Of a DNA stretch of 29,119 nucleotides, positions 10,395 through 26,059 are shown one piece after another. The translations under genes were made by a program, and so were the position numbers. This stretch comes from an uncultured Bacteroidales bacterium (GTDB taxonomy: Bacteria > Bacteroidota > Bacteroidia > Bacteroidales > CAIWKO01), in the NCBI GenBank assembly GCA_964574845.1, contig CAZNRQ010000002.1, positions 1 to 29,119 on the forward strand. The letters run 5' to 3'. How positions within the stretch are numbered: the stretch's first letter is position 1; every line of letters starts with the position of its first letter. A model generated the notes under the pieces. It saw only the letters and a program-made list of their open reading frames with translations, did not search any database and was not told the origin of the DNA.

Positions 10395-10433
10395 AAAATC
10401 CCTTTGACAATAAAGTTAAAGGGATTTTTTTTT
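10395..10433 (+). terminator. Intrinsic terminator closing the nifJ operon
   Basis: AAAATCCCTTTGAC-AATAAA-GTTAAAGGGATTTT stem (one G-U pair) running into T9 (10425-10433). Confidence 0.88.
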
Positions 10434-10526: not shown

Positions 10527-10558
10527 TTTGCAAGGTGAAACGAATATTCTTAGTTTTG
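10527..10558 (+). promoter_or_regulatory. Consensus Bacteroidota sigma70 promoter for the two-component pair
   Basis: TTTG (10527-10530), 20-nt spacer, TAGTTTTG (10551-10558). Confidence 0.7.
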
Positions 10559-10597
10559 TCTTTTAAACTGTTATAGCAGGATAGTAAAAAAGAAAGA

Positions 10598-11620
10598 ATG
10601 AGTAAAATTCCTAAAAATATTCCCTTACTGTTGCTTCACCTTAGTATGTGGATTTTCGTTTATATCTTTCCCTTATTATTCGTTGATAATTCCAGGCCTC
10701 ATCCTCCTATGGTCAATGTTTTGCCCGAATTTGTGCTATCGATGGTGCTGTTTTATTTAAATTATTTCTTGCTCATTAAACAGCTGCTTTTTAAGAAGAA
10801 ATACCTCTTATTTTCTGCCATTAGCTTTGCTATACTGTTATTATTTTTAGGATGTGATTATGTTTTTCAAGCATATAATGACCCAAATTTCCTAGGAAAA
10901 GTTCCTTTTGATTTGTTTTTGATTAGGAGTTTATTGTCATTTACGCTTTCTATTGGTGTTTCAGTAGCCATTCGATCGACTATGCGCTTAAAAGAGGAAG
11001 AATCATTGCGTAAAAAAATAGAAAACGAACACCTGAAGTCAGAGATCACTTATTTAAAGTATCAGCTACAGCCACATTTCTTTTTTAATACCTTAAATAA
11101 TATTTATGCACTAATTGATCGTAAGCCCGAACTAGCAAAGGAAGTGTTGCATAATTTGAGTAAATTGCTCCGTTATGTGTTATATCATGCTGAGGATGCA
11201 AAGGTCCCATTGCAAAGCGAAATTTATTTTCTCAAAACCTATATCAATTTGATGCAGATAAGGTTGTCGTCTAGTATTTTTGTAAAATATGAATTTCCGG
11301 ATTTAGAAGCCGAAGAAACGGAAGTAAGGGTGCCCCCATTATTATTTATTACTTTAGTTGAAAATGCATATAAGCATGGCATTGATGCCAATTTACAAGG
11401 AAATATTTTTATTAAAATGGAACTTACGGCCAGCCATGTAATATTTAGTGTAAATAATTCCTGTTCAAAACCAATAGGAGACGATCAGACGGTTTCAGGT
11501 ATAGGTCTTGAAAATCTGCAAAAACGATTGGATATCTTATATAAAGCTAACGAATTTTCGCTTATCCGGAAACAAACTGATAAAGATTATTACTCAGAAT
11601 TGAAAATACCTGCTAACTGA
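10598..11620 (+). CDS. LytS/YehU-family sensor histidine kinase with about 4 N-terminal TM helices
   Basis: H-box LKYQLQPHFFFNTLNNIY, SKLLRY, PPLLFITLVENAYKHG, GIGLENLQKRL. Confidence 0.95.
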   Translation: MSKIPKNIPLLLLHLSMWIFVYIFPLLFVDNSRPHPPMVNVLPEFVLSMVLFYLNYFLLIKQLLFKKKYLLFSAISFAILLLFLGCDYVFQAYNDPNFLGKVPFDLFLIRSLLSFTLSIGVSVAIRSTMRLKEEESLRKKIENEHLKSEITYLKYQLQPHFFFNTLNNIYALIDRKPELAKEVLHNLSKLLRYVLYHAEDAKVPLQSEIYFLKTYINLMQIRLSSSIFVKYEFPDLEAEETEVRVPPLLFITLVENAYKHGIDANLQGNIFIKMELTASHVIFSVNNSCSKPIGDDQTVSGIGLENLQKRLDILYKANEFSLIRKQTDKDYYSELKIPAN

Positions 11621-12339
11621 TGGATAAAATAGATTGCATAATTGCAGATGATGAGCCTTTCGCTTTGGATCTATTGAGGGGATATGTTGAACAAACCCCC
11701 TTCCTGAACCTTATAAAAGCCTGTAATAATGCTTTTGAAGTGATTGAAGTTTTAAATTCCGGATCCAAATGTGTTTTGTTTCTTGATATTCAAATGCCTG
11801 GTATAAGTGGGATGCAACTGGCAAAAATGCTTAACAACCTAACATTGGTTGTTTTTACTACTGCTTATGAAAGTTATGCTGTTGAAGGATATAAGGTTAA
11901 TGCCTTGGATTATTTGTTAAAGCCTTTTAATTATGAAGAATTTCTTTCAGCAGCAGTAAAGGTAAGAAATCAGTTTGAAATAATGGACAAAAAGCCCATA
12001 AGTAATGCTTCGGAAGATTTTATTATTGTAAAAACGGATTATAAGCTTCAACAAATAGCCTTGAATGAGATTACTTATATTGAAGGACTAAAGGATTATA
12101 TAAAGATTTTCAGACAGGACGTCGAAAAACCTGTTATGAGCCTGATGAGCATGAAAGTAATTGTGGAAAAATTACCAGAGGAAGCATTTATGAGAGTGCA
12201 TCGCTCTTTTATTGTAAATCTGAACAAGATTCAAACGGTAGAAAGGAGCAGGATTATTTTTGGAGAAACCAGCATTCCTGTATCAGACAATTATAAGGAA
12301 AAGTTTCACGAATTTATTTCGGGACGGTTCTTACAGTAG
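11620..12339 (+). CDS. LytTR-family response regulator
   Basis: Receiver IADDE, FLDIQMPGISG, FTTAY, DYLLKP. LytTR domain ITYIEGLKDYIKI and FMRVHRSFIVN. TGATG stop/start coupling with the kinase. Confidence 0.96.
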   Translation: MDKIDCIIADDEPFALDLLRGYVEQTPFLNLIKACNNAFEVIEVLNSGSKCVLFLDIQMPGISGMQLAKMLNNLTLVVFTTAYESYAVEGYKVNALDYLLKPFNYEEFLSAAVKVRNQFEIMDKKPISNASEDFIIVKTDYKLQQIALNEITYIEGLKDYIKIFRQDVEKPVMSLMSMKVIVEKLPEEAFMRVHRSFIVNLNKIQTVERSRIIFGETSIPVSDNYKEKFHEFISGRFLQ

Positions 12340-12352
12340 AATTCATCGATTA

Positions 12353-12371
12353 TAGTTTTGATTAATCAAAA
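12353..12371 (+). promoter_or_regulatory. Candidate -7 element overlapped by a 16-bp perfect palindrome
   Basis: TAGTTTTG (12353-12360) overlaps TTTTGATTAATCAAAA (12356-12371). No TTTG about 20 nt upstream. Confidence 0.5.
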
Positions 12372-12446
12372 GAAGTGAATTAAGAATACCAAACTATGAA
12401 AAAGGAAATTGTTAAATAGAAAAATAAGCAGCTACGGCTTGTCATC

Positions 12447-14690
12447 ATGTTAAAAAAACTACTCTTATATACAGCCCTTTTCCTGATTCCAATGTTTGGG
12501 GCTTTTTCACAAAATACATCTGATTTTTACGATATCAATTTCATAAGAGAAATTCGTATCACATTTGAGGAACAGAACTGGGATCATGTTTTGGACAGTT
12601 TGTTTATAAATTTTGGTGATGATGCAAAACTGGAAGGAACAGTAAGTATCGACGGTCATATATATCAGCACGCAGGTATCCGTTACAAAGGCTACAGTTC
12701 ATGGGATGTGGATCAGGCAAAAAATCCTTTCAATATTGAATTGGATTATCGCAATACTTATCAGAATTATCAGGGATTTACCAAATTAAAACTAAGTAAT
12801 GTCGTTCGCGATCCTTCCTTTATCCGGGAGGTTCTGTCCTATACTATTCTCAGAAAATATATGCCTGCCTCCCGAGCTAATTTTGCGGATGTATATGTTA
12901 ACGATGTTCACATTGGTCTCTACACTAATGTAGAATCGGTGGATAAATTGTTTGCAGAACGAGAATTTGGATCGGGCAGCAATTCCTTTTTTAAAGGAAG
13001 TCCCGAATTACTAGAATATCCTTATGGCCAAAATGCAAACTTGGCATATACTCATGGCACAGATTCAACAGGATATGTGCCGTATTACAACATGGTCTCC
13101 GACCATGGATGGAATGATTTATTGTACCTAATTGCGGTATTGAACAACGACACCACCAATATTCCCAGTGTTTTGAATGTGGATCGTGCCCTATGGATGC
13201 ACGCTTTTGATTATGCGGTTGTAAATCTGGATAGCTATATAGGCTATTCTCAGAATTACTACATGTATAAAGATGACAACGGCGTTTTTAATGCCATTAT
13301 CTGGGATTTGAATATGTCGTTCGGGAGTTTCAGAAATACCGATGCCACTGCATTAAATCTGAGCATAGCAGCTGCTAAGCAGTTAGATCCTCTGAAAATT
13401 GTGACCTCCACAACCTACTCTCCTCGACCATTAATAAAGAATCTCTTGTCAAATTCCATGTACAGGAAAATGTTTCTGGCACATATGCGCACGATCATTA
13501 ATGAGAATGTCAGGAACGGAGAATACTATTTGATCGGGAAACAAATTCAATCCATAGTTGATACCTATGTACAGGCCGACCCCAACAAGTTTTTTTCGTA
13601 TTCAAATTTTATCAAGAACATTGATACCACTGTAGGACCGACATCCAATCAATATCCAGGCATCAAGGATCTCATGGAAGCCCGCTTGGCCTACCTGGAT
13701 ACCTTTCCCGGATTCAATGGTTATCCCGATATAATTGAAATAGCGCATCAACCGGAATCTCCTTCGAAAGGTCAGGAAATATGGTTTACTGTTAAAGTCA
13801 GCAATGCCAATCATGTTATTTTGGGTTTCAGAAACGACAGCAGGGGGATCTTTCAAAAAATTCAAATGTACGATGATGGCAGCCACAATGACAGTTTGGC
13901 TGGCGATAATATTTATGGAGTTTCAGTAATTCCCACAGGCAAGGTGATGCAATATTTCATGTATGCAGAAAACAATGCATCAGGAATATTCTCTCCTGAA
14001 AGGGCCGAGTATGAGTTTTATTCAATACAGCCTTTAATGGAAAAAGAAGATGTTGTCATCAACGAGTTTGGAGATGGTCGTATCGAACTGTTTAACAACA
14101 CCAATGAAGTGTTGAGTTTGTCTGGAAACTTCCTTTCTGACGATAAGCTTGCACTCTCCAAATGGGCATTTCCCGATACGTCCATATCGGCAAAGAGTTA
14201 TTTGATTGTATATACCAGCGAACAAACAACCTCATTTATGCACACAAATTTCAGCTTGCCTCAGGACGGCGGTGGTCTATATTTTTCCAATACAATTGGC
14301 GGTATTTTGGATTCAGTAATTTGGGAAAATACTGAAAGTGGCAAGTCTATCGGTCGATATCCTAACGGGGTTGGTAGCTTTGTTTATATGCCACGGACAT
14401 TCTCTTTTAGTAACAACATAGGAACCGATGTCGATAATGAATTGCTTGTTTTTCCTAATCCTTCCAATGGAATCGTTACTCTAGAATTTGGTAAAACTCA
14501 AGGTGTTTTCTATGTAGAAATAGTGAATATATCTGGAGAGTCCATGTGGTATGAGAGTTTTGATGAAATCTCAGGGTCCGTGAATGTTATTAGTAAATCT
14601 TTTGATCTTTCAACGCTTAGCAAAGGAGTGTACGTGTTTCGCCTGATTTGTGATAATAAAATAACTACTAAAAAAATAATAATAATTTAA
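12447..14690 (+). CDS. CotH-family atypical kinase with lamin-tail-like domain and T9SS C-terminal domain
   Basis: Signal peptide. GIRYKGYSS, KLKLSN-DPSFIREVLSY, GLYTNVESVD, NLDSY-NYYMY, WDLNMSFG. MYDDGSHNDSLAGDNIYG motif, VVINEF-IELFN (LTD-like), and CTD VFPNPSNG-KGVYVFRL-TKKIIII. Confidence 0.9.
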   Translation: MLKKLLLYTALFLIPMFGAFSQNTSDFYDINFIREIRITFEEQNWDHVLDSLFINFGDDAKLEGTVSIDGHIYQHAGIRYKGYSSWDVDQAKNPFNIELDYRNTYQNYQGFTKLKLSNVVRDPSFIREVLSYTILRKYMPASRANFADVYVNDVHIGLYTNVESVDKLFAEREFGSGSNSFFKGSPELLEYPYGQNANLAYTHGTDSTGYVPYYNMVSDHGWNDLLYLIAVLNNDTTNIPSVLNVDRALWMHAFDYAVVNLDSYIGYSQNYYMYKDDNGVFNAIIWDLNMSFGSFRNTDATALNLSIAAAKQLDPLKIVTSTTYSPRPLIKNLLSNSMYRKMFLAHMRTIINENVRNGEYYLIGKQIQSIVDTYVQADPNKFFSYSNFIKNIDTTVGPTSNQYPGIKDLMEARLAYLDTFPGFNGYPDIIEIAHQPESPSKGQEIWFTVKVSNANHVILGFRNDSRGIFQKIQMYDDGSHNDSLAGDNIYGVSVIPTGKVMQYFMYAENNASGIFSPERAEYEFYSIQPLMEKEDVVINEFGDGRIELFNNTNEVLSLSGNFLSDDKLALSKWAFPDTSISAKSYLIVYTSEQTTSFMHTNFSLPQDGGGLYFSNTIGGILDSVIWENTESGKSIGRYPNGVGSFVYMPRTFSFSNNIGTDVDNELLVFPNPSNGIVTLEFGKTQGVFYVEIVNISGESMWYESFDEISGSVNVISKSFDLSTLSKGVYVFRLICDNKITTKKIIII

Positions 14691-14700
14691 ATTTACGACG

Positions 14701-16413
14701 ATGGTAAAAAAGCTTTCTCTAATTTTAGTTTTGGTTTTTGTGTTTACAAAAATAAATGCCCAACAACAGGAAACGTATACATTCGCTGTAGGTGGCACTT
14801 ATGCATATTTGTTTGACACAGCTGCAACAACTTCTTCCCAGTATTATGCCCGGTGGGCAGTAAGTTCAACATCTTACTCTGCACATTTTTTAAAAGACAC
14901 CATCTATCAAAGCACTGGCTCTGGTTCGGGTGGTGGTTCCTGGGGTTCTATAAAGAAATGGGTTTGTTCCAGCCCAACTGTGGCAACTAATACCTGGACC
15001 TATACGGTAACCGGTGGGCACCACGATATTTGCCCACTTCCCAACGGTAATGTGTTGATTATTGTGCATGATTCTAAAACTGCAGCAAATGTATCAGCAG
15101 TTGGAGGAACATATAGTGGGACTGTTCAATCTGAGAAAATACAGGAAATACGTCAGACAGGGCCGACAACTGGTCAAGTTGTTTGGGAATGGAAACTTTG
15201 GGATCATTTATGTCAAAGTACTAATCCTGCCATAACGACCACCTATGTAACATCTGTTGCCGCCAATCCACAGTTGATGAATGTTAATTATAATATGACG
15301 TCTGATTGGATTCACATGAATGGGATCGATTATAATGCACAATTGGATCAGATAGTAGTAAGTTCACACTTTATGAATGAAATATGGGTCATTGACCATA
15401 GTACAACAACTACCCAGGCTGCAACACATAGTGGAGGTAATGGTGGAAGAGGAGGCGATTTTCTTTATCGTTGGGGTAATCCTGCTGCTTACGGATGCAC
15501 TGCAGGAGGAAATGGTATAACTCTTAATACTATTCATGATGCACGTTGGGTATCATCAACCAATGCAAAATACCCCAATTATATCAGCATGTATCATAAC
15601 AATGGGGGGGGTACGGTTCAGGCAGTATTGTGTCAAGCACCACACAATGGATATAATTATACCTATACTGCAGGTTCAGTAATTGCTCCTACCACTTGCA
15701 CAAAACCAACAATTCCATCAATAACTGGAGTGGCAGATCAAGGAAGTATTCAAGTGGTAGAAAATGGCAATATATTAATTACCAAACCAAACAATACATT
15801 TTATGAGTGTAATGGAACCGGAACAACCTACCAAACCTTAGCAGTTGGATCGAACCATGTAGATAGACTAAGAAAATGCAAAGTATATGGTCCTTATACA
15901 ACTGCCTCGTCCTCAACGTCAACTATATGTGCCAATAATCAGATAACATTAAGTTCAACAGCGGTTTCACCGTTACAAAGCAGCCCTACTTTCACTTATT
16001 CATGGTCTTCTGTCCCTGCAGGTTTTACCTCTTCATCACAAAACCCTACTGTTACACCTAATACTGCCGGCAATTACACATATACAGTAACGGTTACAAC
16101 CGCTGGCTGCACCAGTACTTCTTCGGTGAACGTGACAGTTAATGCCTGTACAGATGTGGAAGAAGCTGAAGCAAATCAGTCAGAATTGGTTCTTTTCCCT
16201 AATCCATCCACTGGCATGGTTCAGCTGAACGAAGAATTTATAACAAATAATACTTACGACATTATTGTTTGCAATTCAATTGGAAAAGTCGTGTTCGAAG
16301 GTAAAAATGTCAAAAACATTGACCTCTCAGAACAAGGGGATGGGATTTTTTATGTGTCTGTCAAAACAGATTCGAATGCTGTAATCAATAAAAAGGTAAT
16401 TTTGATTAAATAA
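14701..16413 (+). CDS. Arylsulfotransferase (ASST)-like beta-propeller with PKD-like Ig domain and T9SS C-terminal domain
   Basis: HHDICPLPNGNVL, VVWEWKLWDH, DWIHMNGIDY, EIWVIDHS, GDFLYRWGNP, IHDARW. Ig segment FTYSWS-SQNPTVTP-GNYTYTVTVT and CTD LFPNPSTG-KKVILIK. Confidence 0.82.
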   Translation: MVKKLSLILVLVFVFTKINAQQQETYTFAVGGTYAYLFDTAATTSSQYYARWAVSSTSYSAHFLKDTIYQSTGSGSGGGSWGSIKKWVCSSPTVATNTWTYTVTGGHHDICPLPNGNVLIIVHDSKTAANVSAVGGTYSGTVQSEKIQEIRQTGPTTGQVVWEWKLWDHLCQSTNPAITTTYVTSVAANPQLMNVNYNMTSDWIHMNGIDYNAQLDQIVVSSHFMNEIWVIDHSTTTTQAATHSGGNGGRGGDFLYRWGNPAAYGCTAGGNGITLNTIHDARWVSSTNAKYPNYISMYHNNGGGTVQAVLCQAPHNGYNYTYTAGSVIAPTTCTKPTIPSITGVADQGSIQVVENGNILITKPNNTFYECNGTGTTYQTLAVGSNHVDRLRKCKVYGPYTTASSSTSTICANNQITLSSTAVSPLQSSPTFTYSWSSVPAGFTSSSQNPTVTPNTAGNYTYTVTVTTAGCTSTSSVNVTVNACTDVEEAEANQSELVLFPNPSTGMVQLNEEFITNNTYDIIVCNSIGKVVFEGKNVKNIDLSEQGDGIFYVSVKTDSNAVINKKVILIK

Positions 16414-16427
16414 ATAAAACAAAAACC

Positions 16428-17678
16428 ATGAAAAAGATAATAGCTGCAGTAATTGGCACACTTCTGTTGTGTTCGATAAATTTAGTTAATGCACAGTTTT
16501 TAACCACCCATTATTATACTGGTAATTGCGCTATTGCCAGTGATTATGTCATGGGAGGAGTAGCGGTCGACACCAATAATAACAAATGGTTCGGTACCGA
16601 TCAGGGAGTTGTGAAATACAACGGCAGCACCTGGGCCACTTATACCACTGCAGATGGACTTCCTGTTAATATCATTTCTTGCATTGCAGTTGATAAAAAC
16701 AACAATATATGGATTGGGACAGATGGTGATGGTGTTGCAAAATTTAATGGAAGCACCTGGACCAAATATACTACTGCAGATGGGTTGTGCGATAATGGCA
16801 TTCGTTATGTTGCAGGCGATATCAATGGCGATGTCTGGTTCGGTTCGGGGGGGGCTGGTGTATCCAAACTGAGTGGAGCCACTTGGACTACCTATACTAC
16901 CGGCCTTCCTATGAACGGAGGAATTTATGCGGCTGTAAACTTCATAACAGTGGATAACTCCGGAACCAAATGGTTTGGCACTGATGCCGGTGTGGCTAAA
17001 TTTAATGGTACTACCTGGACAGTAATCGATCAGTCAGTTGAAGACAGTCTGGTGGATAACGGTATTACATCGATTGCAATCGATGCTGCTAATAACAAGT
17101 GGATTGGAACTTTAAGTGGAATTACCAAGTTGAACAGTTCAGATGTCTGGGTGAAGAACTACAGACCTATTGATGGTATGTATAACAATGGCTTAAGAGA
17201 TCTGGACATTGATGTCAATGGGAAACTGTGGATGGGATTATATACCGATTATAACAACAATGGTGGTATTACACGTTTTGATGGTACCAGCTGGACCTCA
17301 CAGCAATTCGACTTCCCAGATTCAGTTTCTGCTGATTGGATCTTTCGTCTAGCGGTCGACAAAAACAACGATGTTTGGGTGGCTATGGATTATGGGGTAA
17401 TTAAAATTGATCATACAAGTTCCATAAGTGAGAATCAGCAAAGTGGTGCTCTTAATGTATTCCCCAACCCGGTTTCGGACAGAATTACACTAAATTTGGA
17501 TATCAATAGTTGCCAGAAAGATCAGTTGGTTCAAATATACAATGCCGTGCAGAAAGTTAAAGAGGTGAATATGCCTGCCTTCATGGCTTCAACAACCATT
17601 CCGGTGGATGATTTGCCTTGTGGTTTATATTTTGTAAGAGTTGGAAATTTAACTAATAAAATAATTATCAGCAGGTAA
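16428..17678 (+). CDS. Seven-bladed two-component-regulator-type (Reg_prop) propeller with T9SS C-terminal domain
   Basis: Seven blades centred on KWFGT, IWIGT, VWFGS, KWFGT, KWIGT, LWMGL, VWVAM, with repeated NGSTW-YTTADGL. CTD VFPNPVSD-GLYFVRV-KIIISR. Confidence 0.88.
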   Translation: MKKIIAAVIGTLLLCSINLVNAQFLTTHYYTGNCAIASDYVMGGVAVDTNNNKWFGTDQGVVKYNGSTWATYTTADGLPVNIISCIAVDKNNNIWIGTDGDGVAKFNGSTWTKYTTADGLCDNGIRYVAGDINGDVWFGSGGAGVSKLSGATWTTYTTGLPMNGGIYAAVNFITVDNSGTKWFGTDAGVAKFNGTTWTVIDQSVEDSLVDNGITSIAIDAANNKWIGTLSGITKLNSSDVWVKNYRPIDGMYNNGLRDLDIDVNGKLWMGLYTDYNNNGGITRFDGTSWTSQQFDFPDSVSADWIFRLAVDKNNDVWVAMDYGVIKIDHTSSISENQQSGALNVFPNPVSDRITLNLDINSCQKDQLVQIYNAVQKVKEVNMPAFMASTTIPVDDLPCGLYFVRVGNLTNKIIISR

Positions 17679-17689
17679 ATCATCTGTAA

Positions 17690-18826
17690 ATGAAAAGCCC
17701 GTCGATCAGAAGAAGCACTTTCCTTATTGTCTTTATAATTAATATCAATTTAGTTTTTGGGCAGAATTTTGCCATTATTTCTGATATTCACGGGGCAACT
17801 CCATCGACTTTGAGTGTTTGCAATCTTGTTAAAAACTGGTCACCGGACTTTATCATTACATGTGGCGATAATAATTACGCTTCTGTCAATGCTATCGATA
17901 CACAAGTAGGTCAGTTTTATCATGAATTTATTTCTCCTTATCTAGGTGTGTTTGGAGTAGGAGATACCATTAATCGTTTTTTTTCAGGGTTGGGCAATCA
18001 TGATGTAGAAAGTGGCGGAATAAGTTCTTATCTCCCGTATGTGAATTTGCCCGGGAATGAAAGATATTACGATTTTGTCAGAGGGTATGTGCATTTCTTT
18101 TGCATTAATAGTAATATTGATGAGCCCGATGGTGTTGCAGATACTTCAATTCAGGCACAATGGCTTCATGCTCATCTGTCGGCCTCCACTTCTTTGTATA
18201 ATATTGTTTATTTTCATCATCCTCCTTATTCGTCAGGACTGGTGCATGGAAGTACCACTTATATGCAATGGCCCTTTATACAATGGGGTGCCAGTGCTGT
18301 TTTTTCCGGACATGATCATATATATGAACGACTGAATATTGGGGGGTTACCCTATTTTATTTGTGGTACGGGTGGCGGCCCTCTATATTCTGTTAATCCA
18401 ATACCCGGCAGCGAATTCATTAATAATACGAATCATGGAGCCATGTGGATTGTAGCAAATGCAGATAGCATGGTCCTAAAGTTTATAAATACGGGTGACA
18501 CCCTTATTGATGAGTATTATATAGTTCCAGGCATTCCGGCTCATGTTGAAAATCAATTCTATTCTGAGCCATTTAGTGTGAATATATACCCCAATCCGGC
18601 CTTACAAAATGTTACAGTTAGTTTCGCTAATTATGAGCAGGATTTTGTGATTACAATTACTGATGTTTTTGGTAGAATTCTCTTTCATAAAGATTATACC
18701 AATAATAATTGTAAATTTGAAACTGTAATACAAAATATTGATGTAAAGGCATTATCTTGTGGAAATTATTTTATTAACGTTCATTGTCAGAATAAAACTG
18801 TTACCCGAAAACTTGTAATTAATTAA
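17690..18826 (+). CDS. Calcineurin-like metallophosphoesterase (purple acid phosphatase-like) with T9SS C-terminal domain
   Basis: All five metal-binding blocks: SDIHG, GDNNY, LGNHD, FHHPPYS, SGHDHIYER. CTD IYPNPA-GNYFINV-RKLVIN. Confidence 0.92.
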   Translation: MKSPSIRRSTFLIVFIININLVFGQNFAIISDIHGATPSTLSVCNLVKNWSPDFIITCGDNNYASVNAIDTQVGQFYHEFISPYLGVFGVGDTINRFFSGLGNHDVESGGISSYLPYVNLPGNERYYDFVRGYVHFFCINSNIDEPDGVADTSIQAQWLHAHLSASTSLYNIVYFHHPPYSSGLVHGSTTYMQWPFIQWGASAVFSGHDHIYERLNIGGLPYFICGTGGGPLYSVNPIPGSEFINNTNHGAMWIVANADSMVLKFINTGDTLIDEYYIVPGIPAHVENQFYSEPFSVNIYPNPALQNVTVSFANYEQDFVITITDVFGRILFHKDYTNNNCKFETVIQNIDVKALSCGNYFINVHCQNKTVTRKLVIN

Positions 18827-18859
18827 ATAAATATATAAATGTTAAACAACCCTAATAAA

Positions 18860-19261
18860 ATGAAAAAACTGTTACTAATCGTTTTACCGCTTTTTATAGT
18901 GGTTTTGATCTCATCCTGTTCAAAGGATCCCGGTGTGGGAGGAAATGGTTCCATCCATGGCAAGGTGTATGCAAAATATTATAACAAATACTTTACTGTT
19001 TTTTTAGGTGAGGGATATGCTGCCGACAAGGAAGTTTATATAATTTACGGTGATGATCTGGACTATGGAGATAAGGTGAACACCAACTATGACGGCAGTT
19101 ACGAATTCAAATATTTGAGGAAGGGTAAATACAAAGTGGTGACCTATTCAAAAGATTCCACACTTACCGTTCCATCAGGAACCATCGCTGTAATTCAAGA
19201 AGGAGAGATATCGAGTAACAAGGAAAGCGTTGAACTGCCAGATTTGAAAATTTTTGACTAA
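18860..19261 (+). CDS. Lipoprotein with a probable prealbumin/carboxypeptidase-regulatory-like beta-sandwich
   Basis: MKKLLLIVLPLFIVVLISS-C lipobox (ATG 18860 preferred over 18839). GSIHGKVY and TNYDGSYEFKYLRKGKYKVV. Confidence 0.8.
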   Translation: MKKLLLIVLPLFIVVLISSCSKDPGVGGNGSIHGKVYAKYYNKYFTVFLGEGYAADKEVYIIYGDDLDYGDKVNTNYDGSYEFKYLRKGKYKVVTYSKDSTLTVPSGTIAVIQEGEISSNKESVELPDLKIFD

Positions 19262-19279
19262 CCATTCAAATTAACGGAA

Positions 19280-19774
19280 ATGAGAACCATGAATATACTG
19301 ACTTTGGCAGTGCTCTGCTTCGCACTTAGCAACGCCATGGGACAGGGAAAAAAAGAAATCAGGGACAATAAAATTGCAACCGAAACATCTTATGTGACAG
19401 CAACAGAGAATGGTAAGGAAGTTACCTACAAGGATTCCTACACTGTTTATGATAAGAATGGCTGTGTTACTGAACAGACCGAGTATAATAAAGAAGGTGC
19501 AATTAAAAGAAAAGAGACTAATAAATACAATGCCAATAAGGACAAGATAGAGGAGGTGGTATACGACGGTAAGGATAAGACCACTCAAAAAACAACATAT
19601 TTTTATAATTCGGAGTATCAAAAAATAGGAGAGATAGAGTATGATGGTGTAGGTCAAATCAAAAAACAGAGCCTTACTACCTATAATCCCAATGGAATGA
19701 AGGCCGAAAAGAAAACCTATGATGCCAATAAAAAACTGATCTCTACGAAGAAATTCACCTATACTACTAAATAG
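19280..19774 (+). CDS. Secreted Lys/Thr/Tyr-rich protein with YD/RHS-like beta-hairpin repeats
   Basis: Signal peptide ending NAMG-Q. Recurrent Y[DN]xxG/K turns about every 11-13 aa (YDKNG, YNKEG, YNANK, YDGKD, YNSEY, YDGVG, YNPNG, YDANK). Confidence 0.8.
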   Translation: MRTMNILTLAVLCFALSNAMGQGKKEIRDNKIATETSYVTATENGKEVTYKDSYTVYDKNGCVTEQTEYNKEGAIKRKETNKYNANKDKIEEVVYDGKDKTTQKTTYFYNSEYQKIGEIEYDGVGQIKKQSLTTYNPNGMKAEKKTYDANKKLISTKKFTYTTK

Positions 19775-19781
19775 TCCCTCA

Positions 19782-20540
19782 TTGGTGGATAACCTTAACG
19801 AAATATTGCAAAAATTTTCACCTATTTCATTAACTGAAATGGATAGCGTTAAACTGATGAACAGGTCGGATACAAAGTTTATTTTCCGTCGCGAACTTCT
19901 AACGACTATATTAGAACAAGTTAGAGACGAATATTTCGTTCTTGAGGTAGAAGGTGTGAGAAATAGCCGTTACGAAACTCTTTATTATGACACAGAAGAT
20001 TTTAAGCTTTTTCATCAGCACCGCTGCGATAAAGCTTCCCGCGAAAAGATTCGTTTAAGGACTTATCTTGAATCTGATCTGCATTTCTTTGAGATTAAGA
20101 AAAAAACAAATAAGGGTAAGACTATAAAGGCCCGTATACAAAGAAGCGAACAGACAGCACAGTTTTCTGAACGCACCCACGATTTTTTACAAAATAAATC
20201 AGATACGGATGGAAGTGAACTAGTGCCCAAATTGTGGACGAAAAACTCAAGAATTACTCTAGTTAACAAGAATCTTCCTGAAAGGCTAACCATTGACACT
20301 GATCTCTTATTTTGTAATATGGAGAAAGAAGAATCCCTATCAGAATTAGTAATTGCCGAACTTAAACAGGAAAAAAAACAACGATCGGCATTTACGGATA
20401 TCATGCGTTGTAAAAGAATACCTGAAATTTCCATAAGCAAATATTGTTTTGGGGTTATATTTCTGTATGAGCATATCCGCATGAACAATTTTAAACCAAA
20501 GCTATTAATTTTAAATAAATTACGACATGAGCCTCTTTAA
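19782..20540 (+). CDS. VTC (polyphosphate polymerase) domain protein, CYTH/TTM fold
   Basis: LMNRSDTKFI, YETLYYDT, REKIRLRTY, FFEIKKK, RITLV, ERLTIDTDL, AELKQ, ISKYC. No signal peptide or TM segment. Start is uncertain (TTG 19782 or GTG 19785). Confidence 0.9.
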   Translation: MVDNLNEILQKFSPISLTEMDSVKLMNRSDTKFIFRRELLTTILEQVRDEYFVLEVEGVRNSRYETLYYDTEDFKLFHQHRCDKASREKIRLRTYLESDLHFFEIKKKTNKGKTIKARIQRSEQTAQFSERTHDFLQNKSDTDGSELVPKLWTKNSRITLVNKNLPERLTIDTDLLFCNMEKEESLSELVIAELKQEKKQRSAFTDIMRCKRIPEISISKYCFGVIFLYEHIRMNNFKPKLLILNKLRHEPL

Positions 20541-21333
20541 AAGTATTTTACTTGTTATCATTGTAATTCTGTTCAGTATGCCCGCTTCCGTAGCGATAGC
20601 ACAAACAGTGACCCCCGATAATAACACCGAAACCGTCCAGGTAACCGAAATAACTAAAGCAGAAAAGAAAAAAGATAAAAAGAAAGATGAAGAAGGGGAT
20701 AAAGAAAGTAAATTGCAGATAGGTACTACATTCTATTTAAATTTTCTGATAAATCTCGCCACTGTATTTATTTTGATAGTTTTTATCTATTATCCTAACT
20801 ACAAGAATAAGGATGTATTCTTCACGTATTTTCTTTTCAATATTGCAATTTTTCTGCTAACTTACTTGATGAATCAGATCAAAATATCAATGGGGGCAGC
20901 TTTCGGACTATTTGCCGTTTTCTCAATGCTTCGATACCGAACCGAGGGTATATCAATCAAAGATATGACCTACCTGTTTATTGTAATTGCAGTAGGCTTG
21001 GTTAGTGCCATACAGCTTGAGTTTTATAATCTGGGTATTATTAATGGAATTATTGTTATTTCCACCTTTCTACTTGATGGGAATATTATTATGAAACGTG
21101 AGTTTTCGAAACGCATCCAGTATGACAATATCGACTTTATCAAGCCAGAGAATTATGATAAATTACTGGAAGATCTTAATAATAGGACCGGGTTAAAGAT
21201 CAGGAGAATATCCATTTTGAAAATAGACTTTTTACGTGATCTTGCCGTAATAGATGTCTTTTATTATAATGGTAAAAAGGACAAGAATTCGGATGTTTCA
21301 CGTGTTGATTCATTGATCAGTGCAACCGATTAA
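20527..21333 (+). CDS. DUF4956-family inner-membrane protein with an N-terminal signal-like extension
   Basis: FGLFAVFSMLRYRT, IKDMTYLFIVIAVGL, about 5 hydrophobic segments, and a C-terminal soluble domain (LLEDLNNRTGLKI). Overlaps the VTC gene by 14 nt. Confidence 0.88.
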   Translation: MSLFKSILLVIIVILFSMPASVAIAQTVTPDNNTETVQVTEITKAEKKKDKKKDEEGDKESKLQIGTTFYLNFLINLATVFILIVFIYYPNYKNKDVFFTYFLFNIAIFLLTYLMNQIKISMGAAFGLFAVFSMLRYRTEGISIKDMTYLFIVIAVGLVSAIQLEFYNLGIINGIIVISTFLLDGNIIMKREFSKRIQYDNIDFIKPENYDKLLEDLNNRTGLKIRRISILKIDFLRDLAVIDVFYYNGKKDKNSDVSRVDSLISATD

Positions 21334-21343
21334 TTTAACAGTT

Positions 21344-22021
21344 ATGCTCCGTAACTTTAATAAAATAGTAATTTCAGCTTTTCTGTTCTTGACGGCTTCT
21401 GCGGCCTTTGCCCAGTGGAACGATGCCCATTTGTGGACCAGCATTAGCATAGAAAAGAAGATAATAAAGAACTTTTCGGTTACGGTTTCGGAGGAACTTC
21501 GATTCTCTGAAAACATTACCGAACTGGGGACCTTTTTTACGGATATAGGATTGAACTATAAAATAAACAAGCATTGGCGCGTTTCGGGAGATTACCGGTT
21601 TACAAACAAGATCCGTCTGGACAATTCGTACAGTAAACGCCATCGTTATTATTTCGATCTGTCGTTTCGTAAGAAGTTCTACCAGTTTTCTATCCTGGCA
21701 CGTACACGTATCCAGTCGCAGTATGCCGATGTGAACAGCAGCGAAACGGGTCATTTGGCCGAATATTATTCGCGTAACAAGCTAACGCTGAAATATAATA
21801 TTACCTCAAAAATAGCGCCCTATCTGTCAGCAGAAGCGTTTATACCGCTGAACAATCCCGAAGTAAAGGGCATTGATAATATGCGTTACAGTTTGGGCCT
21901 GGAATGGGAGTTTCTTAAGAACTCTACACTTGATGTGTTTTATATGATACAACAACAATATCAGGCCAAAGACCCTGAACGTGATTTTGTGACGGGTATT
22001 GGCTATAGTTATTCGTTCTAA
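21344..22021 (+). CDS. DUF2490-family outer-membrane beta-barrel
   Basis: Signal peptide ending AAFA-Q, amphipathic strands (EELRF, DIGLNYKI, RNKLTLKYNI, PYLSAEAF, LDVFYMIQ) and C-terminal YSYSF. ATG 21344 preferred, GTG 21320 possible. Confidence 0.82.
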   Translation: MLRNFNKIVISAFLFLTASAAFAQWNDAHLWTSISIEKKIIKNFSVTVSEELRFSENITELGTFFTDIGLNYKINKHWRVSGDYRFTNKIRLDNSYSKRHRYYFDLSFRKKFYQFSILARTRIQSQYADVNSSETGHLAEYYSRNKLTLKYNITSKIAPYLSAEAFIPLNNPEVKGIDNMRYSLGLEWEFLKNSTLDVFYMIQQQYQAKDPERDFVTGIGYSYSF

Positions 22022-22078: not shown

Positions 22079-22141
22079 TTTTTTATAAAAAATTAAATTT
22101 CTCTTGGAATATCCCTCCAAGAGTATTAATTTTATAAAAAA
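22079..22141. repeat. Imperfect long inverted repeat upstream of the beta-propeller gene
   Basis: Inner arms CTCTTGGA/TCCAAGAG (22101-22108, 22116-22123). Outer arms TTTTTTATAAAA/TTTTATAAAAAA (22079-22090, 22130-22141). Confidence 0.5.
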
Positions 22142-22151
22142 AACTAAAACG

Positions 22152-22892
22152 ATGAAAAAAACCTTGCTGTTTTTAAGCGCAATTATTGTGCTTTTGGCTT
22201 TTAATACACAGGTAAAAGCCCAGATTCTCATTCCAAAGATCACTTTTGAGGAAACACCCCTTACGCATAATGTTCACATCGCCTCTGATGGTGAATATTA
22301 TTATACCTGTAATGGCGGTCGCTCCAACAAAGGCCAGATTCAGAAGTTTTCGTTCAACGGGCGCTTACTCGATACTTACGAAATGTTGCTGGATATGCGT
22401 TCGATCATGTATAATCAGAAAGAAAAATGTTTCTATGTATGCACTTACGAACGGGATATTTATAAAATAACCAGTCTTGAACATGGAAGTTACGAAAAGG
22501 TGAAGAGCGAAATGTACGAGAATGAGCAGGCCAATCTGGCCATGAGTGCCGATGGGAAGTATCTTTACTACTTTACGGACGGTACTCTCAAAATCTATAA
22601 GTTTCCTTCGGGTAAAGTGTCGAAAACCATAAAGGATCTCGATTGTGGTAAGGAATTCACCACGGGTAGTGGAGCTGTTGCCTGCGACGGAAAGTATTTC
22701 TATACTTTTAACGGCGATTATAAAATGATCTATGCCTACGATATGAAGGGCAAAAAAGTGAAATCATTCGAGATTGAGCAGGGAACCTACGGTTTCTCTC
22801 TTTCATGTGCCAATGGTTTGGTTTTTGTATCCGATGACGGCAACTATGAAGTTGGCAAATGGTATGGCTACGATCTGTGGTCAAAACAGTAA
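22152..22892 (+). CDS. Secreted hypothetical protein, probable beta-propeller
   Basis: Signal peptide MKKTLLFLSAIIVLLAFNTQVKA-Q (ATG 22152 preferred over TTG 22104). Blade-like repeats IASDGEYYYT, AMSADGKYLYY, VACDGKYFYT. No T9SS CTD. Confidence 0.82.
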   Translation: MKKTLLFLSAIIVLLAFNTQVKAQILIPKITFEETPLTHNVHIASDGEYYYTCNGGRSNKGQIQKFSFNGRLLDTYEMLLDMRSIMYNQKEKCFYVCTYERDIYKITSLEHGSYEKVKSEMYENEQANLAMSADGKYLYYFTDGTLKIYKFPSGKVSKTIKDLDCGKEFTTGSGAVACDGKYFYTFNGDYKMIYAYDMKGKKVKSFEIEQGTYGFSLSCANGLVFVSDDGNYEVGKWYGYDLWSKQ

Positions 22893-22908
22893 AATGTATT
22901 GAGTTTCG

Positions 22909-22948
22909 AAAGGGCAGGATGGTGTTGGAATCATTCTGCCCTTTTTTT
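22909..22948 (+). terminator. Intrinsic terminator
   Basis: AAAGGGCAGGATG-(loop)-CATTCTGCCCTTT stem (one G-U pair) running into T7 (22942-22948). Confidence 0.85.
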
Positions 22949-23353: not shown

Positions 23354-24631
23354 CTATCTCATCTCCTCCACACTTTCCCTGATCACTTCCTCCACGCTTT
23401 TCTGCCGTTTCCGAGCCTCCGAAAGATGTTGGCTCAGTCCGGGGTCCTGGTCTATCACATACCGGGTTTTGATGTAATCGGGGTTTGGCGTTGCATTGGG
23501 GAAATAAATATTGTAAAGCGCATCGGTAAAACCCCAGAAAGCCCTATAAGTATTTAGCTCGGTAATCATCACAAGTATCACCTCTTGTTTTTCTACCCTC
23601 TCCTGAAGGTTCAGCACCTTGGGAATGTCCTGCATCGTCCAGATATTGGGCCATATCCCGCGGAAATAATACCAATATTCCTGATCACGGAACAAATTAT
23701 CGATGATTCCATTGCTTTGCAGGCCCCAATAATAGCTGTCGCCTACAGTAAGCAATTTGGGTTTGGTCATGGCGCTGCGGTCGTTGTAGCCCACCTGCGG
23801 ATAGCACAACGAAATGTGCTTCACATCGAACAGCAGGTTCATGGTGGCTTCAATATCGAAATCCTCGTCATGGGCTTTTTCAGTGATCTTATAACCCCTC
23901 CATATCATTTCAGGCATATCTATGTGCCTCACACCTTCGATAAACTTCGATAGGGTGTCTCCTGCCCTGAACATGCCGTAAGTGGTCCAGTGCACTCCAT
24001 AATTGCTGTAGACTGGATAACGGACGGTGTCTTTCATCCCCACAAACCAGGAACACAGATCGAGATATTGTAAGCCGATTTCCTTACTGCGTGCTACTAG
24101 ATACTTCATATTGCTGGGCTTCTTATCATAAGGATGATAACGATCGGGGATCAATTCGGGATAATAAGACGCTTTTCCCGGTTCATACACAATGATGAGG
24201 TCAATATTCTTTGCTTTTTTCAAAGTATCCTGAACCATCTTGGTGCGACGCAACACCTCGTTGAGGTATGTTTCTCCCACAAAATTGGCCCCGGTATAAT
24301 CCAGGATATATCCTTCCTCATAAAGACAATTGTTTTTGCCAATAATAACATTATGAGCATCAGTTTTTTTATAGAGCCAATAGTTAAGCTGGTTGTTGGT
24401 GCGTATCAATATTTCGCGCAGACCGAAACTGTCTTCCACCGAGCGGTTGTATTTCTTTTGGAAAGACTCGTCTGACCATGTTTTCCAGTTCAGCGTATCG
24501 GGTCGTTTATGGGTCTCGAAGAAACCATTTAAGGGTTTTACCCGAAACAGATGCAACTGTTGTTGCAACAAGGGCATAAACAGCATCAGCATGATGATTA
24601 CAAACAGTGATATTTTGATTGTCTTCTTCAT
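23354..24631 (-). CDS. AlgJ/AlgX-like SGNH polysaccharide O-acetyltransferase, membrane-anchored
   Basis: N-terminal TM helix, VIIGKNNCLYEEGY, YEPGKASYYPE, GVHW preceding the GDSY serine block (the permuted order seen in AlgJ/AlgX). Abuts an MBOAT gene. Confidence 0.8.
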   Translation of the reverse strand: MKKTIKISLFVIIMLMLFMPLLQQQLHLFRVKPLNGFFETHKRPDTLNWKTWSDESFQKKYNRSVEDSFGLREILIRTNNQLNYWLYKKTDAHNVIIGKNNCLYEEGYILDYTGANFVGETYLNEVLRRTKMVQDTLKKAKNIDLIIVYEPGKASYYPELIPDRYHPYDKKPSNMKYLVARSKEIGLQYLDLCSWFVGMKDTVRYPVYSNYGVHWTTYGMFRAGDTLSKFIEGVRHIDMPEMIWRGYKITEKAHDEDFDIEATMNLLFDVKHISLCYPQVGYNDRSAMTKPKLLTVGDSYYWGLQSNGIIDNLFRDQEYWYYFRGIWPNIWTMQDIPKVLNLQERVEKQEVILVMITELNTYRAFWGFTDALYNIYFPNATPNPDYIKTRYVIDQDPGLSQHLSEARKRQKSVEEVIRESVEEMR

Positions 24632-26053
24632 CTAAAACCTGAAATAAATAAAAGGATTAAAACCCGAAGCCGCTGTACCCGCTGCTCCCACTATAAATAG
24701 TAGTATCGACAACGCACCCAATATGATAACATTTCGGCTTTTTTGATCTGTACCAAACACTCTCATCTGCCAGGGTTCAGCATTTCTTATCACTCCGAAG
24801 AAGGAGAACAAAAACGCAAACACCAAAATCACCTTGAAATGGGAATCGAAAACTATATCAGTAGGAGCAAAGCTGAAATCGAACATGCGGTGCAGATAGA
24901 ATTTTATATGGGTTATGCTTTCGCAACGAAACAGCACCCAACCTATCAATGTCAGGAAAAAAGTAAAAATGATGCTGGGATACTTACCGATCTTGTTCAG
25001 AACCTTTAGCAGGAAAAGCCGGTCCATAATCAGGAAAAACCCATGATAGGCCCCCCATAAGATAAAGTTCCATTCGGCACCATGCCAAAAGCCCGATATA
25101 AGAAACACAAAACTCAGGTTGAAATACATGCGTGCCTTCGAAACCTTATTTCCCCCCAGGGAGACATACAGATAATCGCGCATCCAACGGCTGAGCGACA
25201 TATGCCAGCGTCGCCAGAAATCGGTTATGCTCTGCGCGATGTAGGGGTTGTTAAAGTTTTCGGGGAACACGAATCCCATCATACGTGCCAGCCCAATGGC
25301 CATATCTGAATATCCCGAAAAATCGAAATAGATCTGGAAAGCATAAGCCACTATACCTATCCACGCCAAAGGAGTGGTCAGATCGTCCATGCCCAATCCC
25401 ATGATCTTATCGGCTTCGGCACCCAGCACGTTAGCAATTAATATTTTCTTAGATAATCCAATTACAAAGCGGAAGAAACCCACCAGCTTATTGTCAATGC
25501 CATATTGATAGCTGCGGTCTTCTATCTGATCCGATATCTCGTTGAAACGAATAATGGGTCCGGCTATCAGTTGGGGAAAGAACAAAATGTAGAGGGCATA
25601 GTTCATGATACTCTTCATCGGCGGTTTTACGCCACGATACACATCGATGATGTAGCTCATTTCATGGAAAGTAAAAAAAGATATGCCTATAGGTAGTGCC
25701 ACTTTTAGCCAGTGTATATGCGAAAAACCCATCTGCACCATCAGTTGAACGAAATTTGCTACAAAGAAATTGGAATACTTGAAGTAGATCAGAATACCAA
25801 CATTAATACTTATAGCTGCTGCCAACAGCACCTTCCGTTTGGTCCCCTGAGAGCGATGGATGAATCGTGCAAAGAGGAAATCGGCCACAATAGACCCGAA
25901 GATAACAAATATAAACAGGGGGGCTCCCCAGGCATAGAAAACCACACTGGCAAGCAAGGCCACCAAGTTCTTGAATCTCTTACCTACAATGAAATAGAGT
26001 AATAGGGTTACTGGTAGAAAGTAGAAAAGAAACAGAACACTGCTGAAAACCAT
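24632..26053 (-). CDS. MBOAT-family O-acyltransferase (AlgI/PatA/DltB-like)
   Basis: MVFSSVLFLFYFLP, LPIGISFFTF, FFPQLIAGPI, DFSGYSDMA, NFNNPY, FWRRWHMSLSRW, SGFWHGA. Confidence 0.96.
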   Translation of the reverse strand: MVFSSVLFLFYFLPVTLLLYFIVGKRFKNLVALLASVVFYAWGAPLFIFVIFGSIVADFLFARFIHRSQGTKRKVLLAAAISINVGILIYFKYSNFFVANFVQLMVQMGFSHIHWLKVALPIGISFFTFHEMSYIIDVYRGVKPPMKSIMNYALYILFFPQLIAGPIIRFNEISDQIEDRSYQYGIDNKLVGFFRFVIGLSKKILIANVLGAEADKIMGLGMDDLTTPLAWIGIVAYAFQIYFDFSGYSDMAIGLARMMGFVFPENFNNPYIAQSITDFWRRWHMSLSRWMRDYLYVSLGGNKVSKARMYFNLSFVFLISGFWHGAEWNFILWGAYHGFFLIMDRLFLLKVLNKIGKYPSIIFTFFLTLIGWVLFRCESITHIKFYLHRMFDFSFAPTDIVFDSHFKVILVFAFLFSFFGVIRNAEPWQMRVFGTDQKSRNVIILGALSILLFIVGAAGTAASGFNPFIYFRF

Positions 26054-26059
26054 CCTGCC

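Follow-up and report, generated by a model that had tools for sequence, protein, structure and literature searches.

Here, we propose that a run of genes in the DNA of an uncultured Bacteroidales bacterium joins two modules: an envelope core built around a VTC-domain protein (the tunnel domain of the yeast vacuolar transporter chaperone complex), and a set of surface proteins exported by the type IX secretion system (T9SS). The stretch analysed, which we call the window, is 29,119 nucleotides (nt) long (contig CAZNRQ010000002.1 of assembly GCA_964574845.1); position 1 is its first letter, and all features lie on the + strand unless stated. The locus is a real and conserved form of a kind of gene cluster that is already known but uncharacterised, and its arrangement is more than chance because it is conserved across genomes. 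We hold our view of its function with about as much doubt as confidence: as one regulated locus, it would bring a VTC-made polymer to the cell surface, where the T9SS-exported set would modify a surface polymer.

In the window, the cargo module comes first. It comprises a secreted protein of CotH kinase fold that carries a lamin-tail domain (LTD) and a T9SS type-A C-terminal domain (CTD) (12447-14690; PF08757, E 1.2e-40, and PF18962), a secreted six-bladed propeller that bears a T9SS CTD as well as a PKD domain and resembles the arylsulfate sulfotransferases (ASSTs) (14701-16413; Pfam PF05935), a secreted Reg_prop propeller of seven blades, likewise with a T9SS CTD, its seven repeats readable in the sequence (16428-17678; PF07494 and PF18962), and, as an accessory of the lineage, a secreted purple-acid-phosphatase-like metallophosphoesterase with a T9SS CTD (17690-18826; PF00149, E 1e-15). 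The core follows, with a small lipoprotein (18839-19261; lipobox LISSC) that has a beta-sandwich of carboxypeptidase-regulatory or SdrD-B type and a weak SdrD_B match, a short secreted protein with a signal peptide and a structure match to YD/RHS repeats (19280-19774), the cytoplasmic VTC-domain protein, which has a TTG start (19782-20540; PF09359, E 2.8e-29), an inner-membrane DUF4956 protein with transmembrane (TM) segments (20527-21333; PF16316, E 1.5e-50), and a DUF2490 protein with a signal peptide and a weak OMP_b-brl match, predicted to be an outer-membrane beta-barrel (21320-22021; PF10677, E 2e-30). From the CotH gene on, the genes are separated by gaps of 10, 14, 11, 12, 18 and 7 nt and then by two 14-nt overlaps. 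A LytS-type sensor histidine kinase (10598-11620; His_kinase PF06580, E 3.8e-24, with four N-terminal TM segments by hydropathy) and a response regulator with Response_reg and LytTR matches (11620-12339) lie ahead of the run, so that a PF06580 sensor is followed by a receiver-LytTR regulator. The eleven domain calls of a preliminary description of this DNA hold, as do its gene order, tight gaps and overlaps, and lack of a strong internal terminator, with the named Pfam families scoring above their curated cut-offs. Its statement that the products span the envelope from cytoplasm to surface also stands, given a VTC protein lacking signal peptide and TM segment, the TM segments of DUF4956, the lipobox, the signal peptides, the barrel family of DUF2490, the four type-A CTDs, and PorU and PorV.

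To follow the locus in other genomes, the ~20 kb around each VTC gene of the relatives (present in 27 of 41) was labelled with profiles built from the window's proteins, and 166 VTC-anchored loci were pooled from three samples, with neighbours counted within 10 kb. In 164 of the 166 loci, DUF4956 and VTC are neighbours and share a strand. Across the order, the invariant part of the locus is the series lipoprotein, repeat protein, VTC, DUF4956 and DUF2490, which is also found in named metagenome-assembled genomes (MAGs) of several orders, and the core occurs in cultured Runella, Emticicia, Flectobacillus, Larkinella and Lacihabitans and in Bacteroides thetaiotaomicron (BT3498-BT3499). The latter two genes (DUF4956 and DUF2490) were found in the literature only in a table of the iron stimulon (PMC10434189). 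Of the roughly 12 loci of the family and genus whose upstream sequence is complete, 11 show the longer series of ASST-like protein, Reg_prop propeller, CotH, in some cases the phosphoesterase, lipoprotein, repeat protein, VTC, DUF4956 and DUF2490 (L031, L033, L035, L038, L040, L041 and L044-L048, all with ASST, propeller, CotH and core). Some shuffling occurs there: CotH moves from first to third place, the ASST-like gene frequently occurs in duplicate, and only four relatives have the phosphoesterase. Outside the family, the extended arrangement is found in further named MAGs (L140, L142, L149, L178, L182, L189, L198 and L203), in one of which (L178) a LytS/LytTR pair stands in front as in the window, and in three genomes of the phylum-wide sample (L057, L079 and L098). 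The preliminary description had named a lack of synteny between the cargo genes and VTC-DUF4956 in other genomes as the result that would count against it; synteny is what the family loci and no fewer than 12 lineages beyond them display. In the neighbourhood survey that it had suggested, CotH lies within 10 kb of VTC in 71/166 loci, and the ASST-like gene is near VTC in 23/166 loci and there always in the company of a CotH gene on the same strand (23/23). The phosphoesterase was seen in 5/166 loci, all in or near the window's genus, and the "eraser" of the preliminary description is thus a lineage-specific add-on rather than a core part of the system. A LytS/LytTR pair, either co-directional or divergent, adjoins 18 of the 166 loci, in Bacteroidales, Cytophagales (Flectobacillus) and others.

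The modules are also linked at the level of whole genomes. In a sample of 400 near-complete Bacteroidota genomes, with counts that take no account of phylogeny, VTC is found in 61 genomes (44 of 180 genera), CotH in 154, a clear ASST-like match in 43 and PPK1 in 345. All 61 genomes with VTC also have CotH, as against 93 of the 339 genomes (27%) that lack VTC; VTC without CotH was never seen. The two modules are probably tied in function: every sampled VTC genome has CotH, and the modules are often fused in one operon. The ASST-like family as a whole is not an obligate partner at genome level and was rejected as such, with VTC in only 13 and CotH in only 21 of its 43 genomes; the association holds for the closest orthologs alone. 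The seven closest ASST orthologs (>460 bits) all lie directly beside a gene for CotH with LTD and CTD, three of them also beside VTC-DUF4956, and six of their seven genomes have VTC somewhere. Since these orthologs are always beside CotH and in only 3/7 cases beside VTC, the trio of CotH, ASST-like protein and propeller is a module of its own that has repeatedly been fused to the VTC core. Placing the ASST-like protein and the propeller in a single VTC system, as was done at the outset, is thus correct as to synteny and needs amending as to linkage, which is to CotH (7/7) and not to VTC (4/7 away from it). In lineages of another class, the Reg_prop protein is replaced, as third member of the cargo set, by a 710-aa protein with a double PSII_BNR propeller and a CTD.

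By profile and fold, the VTC protein is closest to the polymerase branch of the tunnel enzymes. It consists of 252 aa with neither a signal peptide nor a TM segment, scores 102.8 bits against a PF09359 cut-off of 23, and covers profile positions 1-234 of 235. Its AlphaFold model (predicted local distance difference test, pLDDT, 90.7) has the tunnel domains of yeast Vtc4, Vtc3 and Vtc2 as its top 13 fold matches in the Protein Data Bank (PDB) (E 1e-12 to 3e-10, TM-scores of 0.6-0.66), followed by YgiF (1.4e-8) and CYTH proteins. The residues invariant in 15 sequences (K32, R91, R93, E104, K106, E193, K195, S219 and K220) align with the 3G3Q motifs TTKYW, RLRWY, ERK, EVK and SKF in a hidden Markov model (HMM) alignment that is weak overall (E 0.0018). 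For VTC, as for the ASST-like protein and CotH, single-sequence searches of the PDB gave matches to CTDs only, and profiles were needed. The yeast VTC complex (Vtc4/Vtc3/Vtc1; 3G3Q/3G3R, 7YTJ and 8I6V) supplies, in its tunnel domain, the best match by structure and by Pfam. The tunnel residues are kept in the window's protein, and that protein is paired with a membrane protein encoded next door, which is consistent with coupled synthesis and translocation. The differences are that the window's tunnel domain lacks SPX, is not fused to a membrane domain and has 14-18% identity, and that its partner is DUF4956 instead of a three-helix domain of the Vtc1 type.

Of the other core proteins, DUF4956 contains several TM segments, and its RYRT / MTYLF core is conserved. 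In the window's genus it carries an extra signal-like segment at the N terminus and a stretch rich in Lys, Asp and Glu (20527-20740; 9 K+R and 10 D+E in 40 residues), neither of which is found in distant homologs; if this N terminus faces the periplasm, it would form a charged tail at the exit side. The repeat protein matches YD-repeat clusters of the Atlas by structure (TM-score 0.79) and is a short beta-hairpin protein of YD/RHS type, and the Atlas neighbours of the lipoprotein are beta-sandwiches like those of carboxypeptidase-regulatory domains.

The cargo proteins are recognisable as such since all four match both PF18962 and TIGR04183 above cut-off, as expected for type-A cargo of the T9SS, and their CTDs align to the translocon-bound CTD 8GLK_D. 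The source genome encodes PorU (1311 bits) and PorV (295 bits), so the CTD cargo can be secreted. CotH itself scores 140.4 bits with PF08757, and its family profile matches CotH of Bacillus cereus (5JD9) at E 4.8e-17. Its residues N260-L261-D262, N270 and W286-D287, invariant in 14 sequences, align to NFD, HNY and WDYD of 5JD9. These motifs we take to hold the catalytic Asp, the Asn and the metal-binding Asp, as reportedly described by Nguyen et al. 2016. CotH is thus like the spore-coat kinase of Bacillus (5JD9/5JDA) in its Pfam family and in its aligned catalytic and metal-binding residues, and differs from it in belonging to a host that forms no spores, in being secreted by the T9SS with an LTD and a CTD added, and in having QNY in place of HNY.

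The ASST-like protein scores 54.5 bits against a PF05935 cut-off of 24.2, covering profile positions 92-208 of 374 only. Its model (pLDDT 83) is a six-bladed propeller that is closest to the solved ASSTs and nearest to Cpz4, which its profile also matches by sequence (E 2.6e-4). Cpz4 sulfates a sugar hydroxyl, and in the Escherichia coli ASST the active site is made up of the nucleophile His436 with His252, His356, Asn358, Arg374 and Thr501 (PMC13426309). Across 18 ASST-like sequences, down to 31% identity, the motifs HHD, WDH, D..H.N, DHST, R and HD are invariant. Judged by spacing, and not by superposed residues, H108, H205-x-N207 and H279-D280 fit E. coli His252, His356/Asn358 and His436, and H279 aligns with the QHD of Cpz4 by HMM alignment. 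The E. coli N-terminal beta-sandwich is absent, with the model aligning to 3ELQ 126-571 and the propeller starting right after the signal peptide. In contrast to the ASSTs that are independent of 3'-phosphoadenosine 5'-phosphosulfate (E. coli 3ELQ/3ETS and Streptomyces Cpz4 9KF4/9KF6), the window's protein adds a PKD domain and a CTD, lacks this beta-sandwich, matches a third of the Pfam model and has 14-16% identity, and its nucleophile assignment is putative. The fold and partial motifs suggest that it may transfer sulfate. ASST-like proteins vary in length elsewhere: those of genomes G363 and G116 have ~1060-1077 aa, and an open reading frame of 1746 aa with an ASST-like domain and a CTD (L047:13093-18333) is about three times as long as usual.

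Hybrid two-component systems of Bacteroides have glycan-sensing propellers, and these are the solved structures nearest to the Reg_prop propeller (4A2L, E 3e-27), which also shows a weak likeness to PorZ. The window's protein shares Reg_prop repeats with the sensor of BT4663 (4A2L) and with PorZ, and differs from both as a single seven-blade propeller that lacks kinase and regulator domains and is exported as T9SS cargo. The phosphoesterase (59.2 bits with Metallophos) has the five metal-ligand motifs DIH, GDNNY, GNHD, HH and GHDH, and purple acid phosphatases are its nearest solved chains (E 2.5e-4).

The combination of CotH, VTC and DUF4956 was thought at the outset not to be new, and this is so: genes for CotH, a polyphosphate-polymerase-like protein and DUF4956 have been published, with no function given, as accessory genes that lie beside the pel operons of Gram-positive bacteria (Whitfield et al., bioRxiv 10.1101/768473 = PMC7112168; S. 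intermedius preprint 10.1101/2024.04.20.589940). The likeness lies in the three families that stand side by side in both, CotH being secreted, the VTC-like enzyme cytoplasmic and DUF4956 a membrane protein. The difference is the diderm setting, in which a lipoprotein, a YD-repeat protein and a DUF2490 barrel are added, CotH is exported by the T9SS, and ASST-like, propeller and phosphatase cargo and LytS/LytTR come along. No match to Pel families (pelDEADAFG) or DUF4832 was found among the window genes scanned. What is new here is the most complete joining of core and cargo trio so far, under a two-component system, together with the acid-phosphatase-like cargo of one lineage, the rule that VTC implies CotH, and the adherence of the closest ASST-like orthologs to CotH.

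What might such a locus do? In the mechanism that we propose, the first module (lipoprotein, YD-repeat protein, VTC, DUF4956 and DUF2490) would be the Bacteroidota form of the bacterial VTC-DUF4956 pair, in which a cytoplasmic Vtc4-like enzyme works at the multi-pass inner-membrane DUF4956 with two periplasmic proteins and an outer-membrane barrel. VTC would build polyphosphate from ATP and feed it through DUF4956 into the periplasm, from where the lipoprotein, the YD protein and the DUF2490 barrel would hand it to the cell surface. The second module would consist of the CotH kinase, the His-transferase propeller of ASST type and the glycan-sensor-like propeller, with the phosphatase-like enzyme in the window's lineage only. 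Once exported and anchored at the surface, this set may decorate a polymer of the surface or matrix, bound by the propeller, with anionic groups (phosphate, perhaps sulfate). Judging by the proteins most closely related to the two propellers, that polymer would more likely be a glycan than a protein. The LytS/LytTR pair would control expression. Polyphosphate synthesis, the direction of export, the substrate, the donor and the regulation are what we infer from the data above. The preliminary picture of a writer, an eraser, a sulfate transferase and a binder fed from inside the cell is plausible in outline, and in it the supply of phosphoryl donor from within is a step that could be so.

Bacteria are thought to make polyphosphate through PPK1 and PPK2 and to keep it intracellular. 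A conserved Vtc4-like enzyme with partners in the inner membrane, the periplasm and the outer membrane would be a second route of synthesis and possibly a route of export. The strict genome-level tie between VTC and CotH bears on an open question, namely where extracellular kinases obtain their phosphoryl donor. The form found in the window points to programmed anionic decoration (phosphate, perhaps sulfate) of the surface or matrix in freshwater Bacteroidota, and as the core is present in B. thetaiotaomicron and in cultured genera, the idea is directly testable.

Several observations weigh against our proposal. In the searchable literature, we found no experiment on a bacterial VTC-domain protein, and no paper on a T9SS-secreted CotH or experiment on any CotH of the Bacteroidota. 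No SPX domain and no DUF202 (the Vtc1-type channel) was matched in any gene of the locus, and a predicted complex of DUF4956 with VTC scored 0.00, a value which, as controls were not run, speaks neither for nor against binding. PPK1 is found alongside VTC in 55 of 61 carriers, including the source genome, so that VTC is not needed for bulk polyphosphate. The related idea that VTC replaces PPK1 predicts carriers lacking PPK1; it was rejected on the same count and lends no support to a polymerase function. CotH is frequent in genomes without VTC (93 of them), and trios of CotH, ASST-like protein and propeller exist away from VTC, which makes the cargo set independent of the core. The co-occurrence counts are, in addition, uncorrected for phylogeny, and three metatranscriptomes from samples with the strain contained nothing of the locus, two that were aligned to it giving no contig.

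Some of these points would be expected if the locus held two independent modules that share a site and perhaps a regulator, with the core handling a phosphate polymer of the envelope (for storage, for binding metals or as matrix) and the trio acting on external phenolics or glycans, and with neither substrate nor donor passing between them. This we consider doubtful, though a serious possibility. In its favour, four of the seven closest ASST lineages (L125-L128) have the trio with no VTC adjacent, 93 genomes have CotH and lack VTC, 30 of the 43 genomes with an ASST-like gene lack VTC, and gene order between the modules is shuffled, CotH changing its position. Independence is, however, difficult to square with the presence of CotH in every VTC genome (61/61), and the repeated joining of the modules at gaps of 0-50 nt, across orders, classes and gene orders, is hard to explain if they share no function. 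A narrower objection concerns the cargo set, whose ASST-like protein and propeller could be non-catalytic, lectin-like adhesins or scaffolds that place CotH on its target, with no sulfate chemistry. That Pfam covers 117 of 374 ASST positions and that the partner propeller of another class belongs to a different family (PSII_BNR) would agree with such a role, but the His/Asp/Asn/Arg set is invariant across all 18 sequences, its spacing fits the E. coli site (PMC13426309) and the profile matches Cpz4 by sequence, and we regard a purely non-catalytic role as unlikely.

The two remaining alternatives concern the fate of the phosphate polymer. The locus might provide for surface modification that is independent of ATP, in which VTC, DUF4956 and DUF2490 deliver polyphosphate, a surface-exposed CotH uses it as phosphoryl donor or attaches it, and the ASST-type enzyme adds sulfuryl or phosphoryl groups to a glycan held by the propeller. 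If true, this would account for the fuelling of secreted bacterial kinases outside the cell and would reveal the first bacterial polyphosphate exporter; it strikes us as quite unlikely. Alternatively, the flow might be inward, with the barrel, the periplasmic proteins and DUF4956 importing polyphosphate or triphosphate, the VTC-like enzyme cleaving it, and the secreted phosphatase and kinase-fold proteins scavenging phosphate. Most bacterial triphosphate tunnel enzymes hydrolyse their substrate, YgiF and CYTH proteins come next among the fold matches, synthesis is already provided for by PPK1, and a secreted acid-phosphatase-like enzyme is encoded in the operon. Still, the Pfam assignment and the 13 top-ranking fold matches point to the polymerase branch (Vtc4/2/3) and not to the hydrolases, the phosphatase is missing from 161 of the 166 loci, and the locus holds neither a phosphate-starvation regulator nor a Pst/Pho gene, all of which leaves import and hydrolysis very unlikely.

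In returning to our proposal of one regulated locus, the boundaries and transcription units of the run have to be considered. Strong terminator-like hairpins are present at 10395-10428 (a 14-bp stem and then a T run, which ends an upstream DHO-dehydrogenase-like gene and forms the left boundary) and at 22908-22945 (a 16-bp stem and then a T run, the right boundary), with none inside the run. A gene for a 262-aa secreted protein that belongs to no known family, with no match in Pfam or NCBIfam (22104-22892), follows DUF2490 as an accessory. Since the next strong hairpin is that at 22908-22945, it is probably in the same unit, as the tenth and likely last gene. Orthologs of this protein adjoin the module only in L033 (after DUF2490) and in L050 (before VTC). 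The stop codon of lytS and the start codon of lytTR overlap at 11620, and the gap between LytTR and CotH is larger than the others, at 107 nt (12340-12446). A promoter-like element of Bacteroidota type, TTTG-N20-TAGTTTTG, was read from the sequence before lytS (10527-10558), and a -7-like TAGTTTTG lies at 12353-12360 in the 107-nt interval, a candidate promoter or regulator target of the nine-gene run; both, we assume, resemble the -33/-7 promoter consensus of the Bacteroidota. These two elements suggest that lytS-lytTR and the run from cotH to DUF2490 are two adjacent transcription units. The operon is therefore "two-component-linked", in the earlier wording, in that the pair adjoins it, the pair itself probably being a unit of its own. 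The neighbouring LytS/LytTR pair probably switches on the nine- or ten-gene operon. No common motif that would represent a shared LytTR-type operator was recognised by eye in the intergenic regions of 15 loci. In two loci (L041 and L044), the divergent LytS/ASST intergenic regions share a palindrome, TCGACAAACAAAG ... CTTTTTGTCGA, a candidate operator or hairpin that is absent from the intergenic regions of the window.

The source genome, a MAG with a completeness of 68%, belongs to an uncultured genus of Bacteroidales and comes from lake water, and its strain is present at >=99% identity in several independent lake or freshwater metagenomes. The gene order is not an assembly artefact because contigs from two independent freshwater metagenomes (>=99% identity) bridge five junctions, namely CotH/ASST, ASST/propeller, phosphoesterase/lipoprotein/repeat protein, VTC/DUF4956 and DUF4956/DUF2490. 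With a GC content of 0.33-0.41, the operon is somewhat below its left flank (0.44-0.53). Recent horizontal transfer was set aside despite the lower GC, as the same PFOR/DHO-dehydrogenase site is occupied in L031, L033 and L050. Two contigs of the same genome (C109 and C232) each have a full-length match to PorU above cut-off (1311 and 1159 bits); at an estimated contamination of 2%, these could be paralogs or the product of mixed strains. The genome also holds two further CotH genes (with LTD, one with a CTD) and three further ASST-like genes, on the short contigs C137, C252, C194 and C554.

Other loci vary around the same elements. In L050 (genome G020, same family), the site after PFOR and the DHO-dehydrogenase-like gene holds only the 262-aa protein, VTC and DUF4956; cargo genes, lipoprotein, repeat protein and DUF2490 were not detected there, such that gene content varies at a fixed site. 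L210 has lipoprotein-VTC-DUF4956-DUF2490 in two copies that lie tail to tail with 68 nt between them. In eight VTC loci, which represent at least two families (L102, L114, L117, L155, L158, L188, L192 and L203), a convergent unit of ispF (YgbB), porV and porU lies at most a few tens of nt past DUF2490 or DUF4956, just beyond the core, with porU encoding a Peptidase_C25 protein with a CTD; this is not so in the window. The presence of porV and porU, which are T9SS attachment genes, beside the core could reflect synteny by descent or hint at a link to the T9SS. In the window, the region that converges on the operon (minus strand, 23354-29095) encodes an AlgX-like SGNH protein and an MBOAT O-acyltransferase, which look like a pair for polysaccharide O-acylation, and a 1011-aa T9SS cargo protein with FlgD_ig. 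A minus-strand CTD gene lies 2.4-3.1 kb downstream of the operon in L031 and L033 and could be the same neighbour as in the window.

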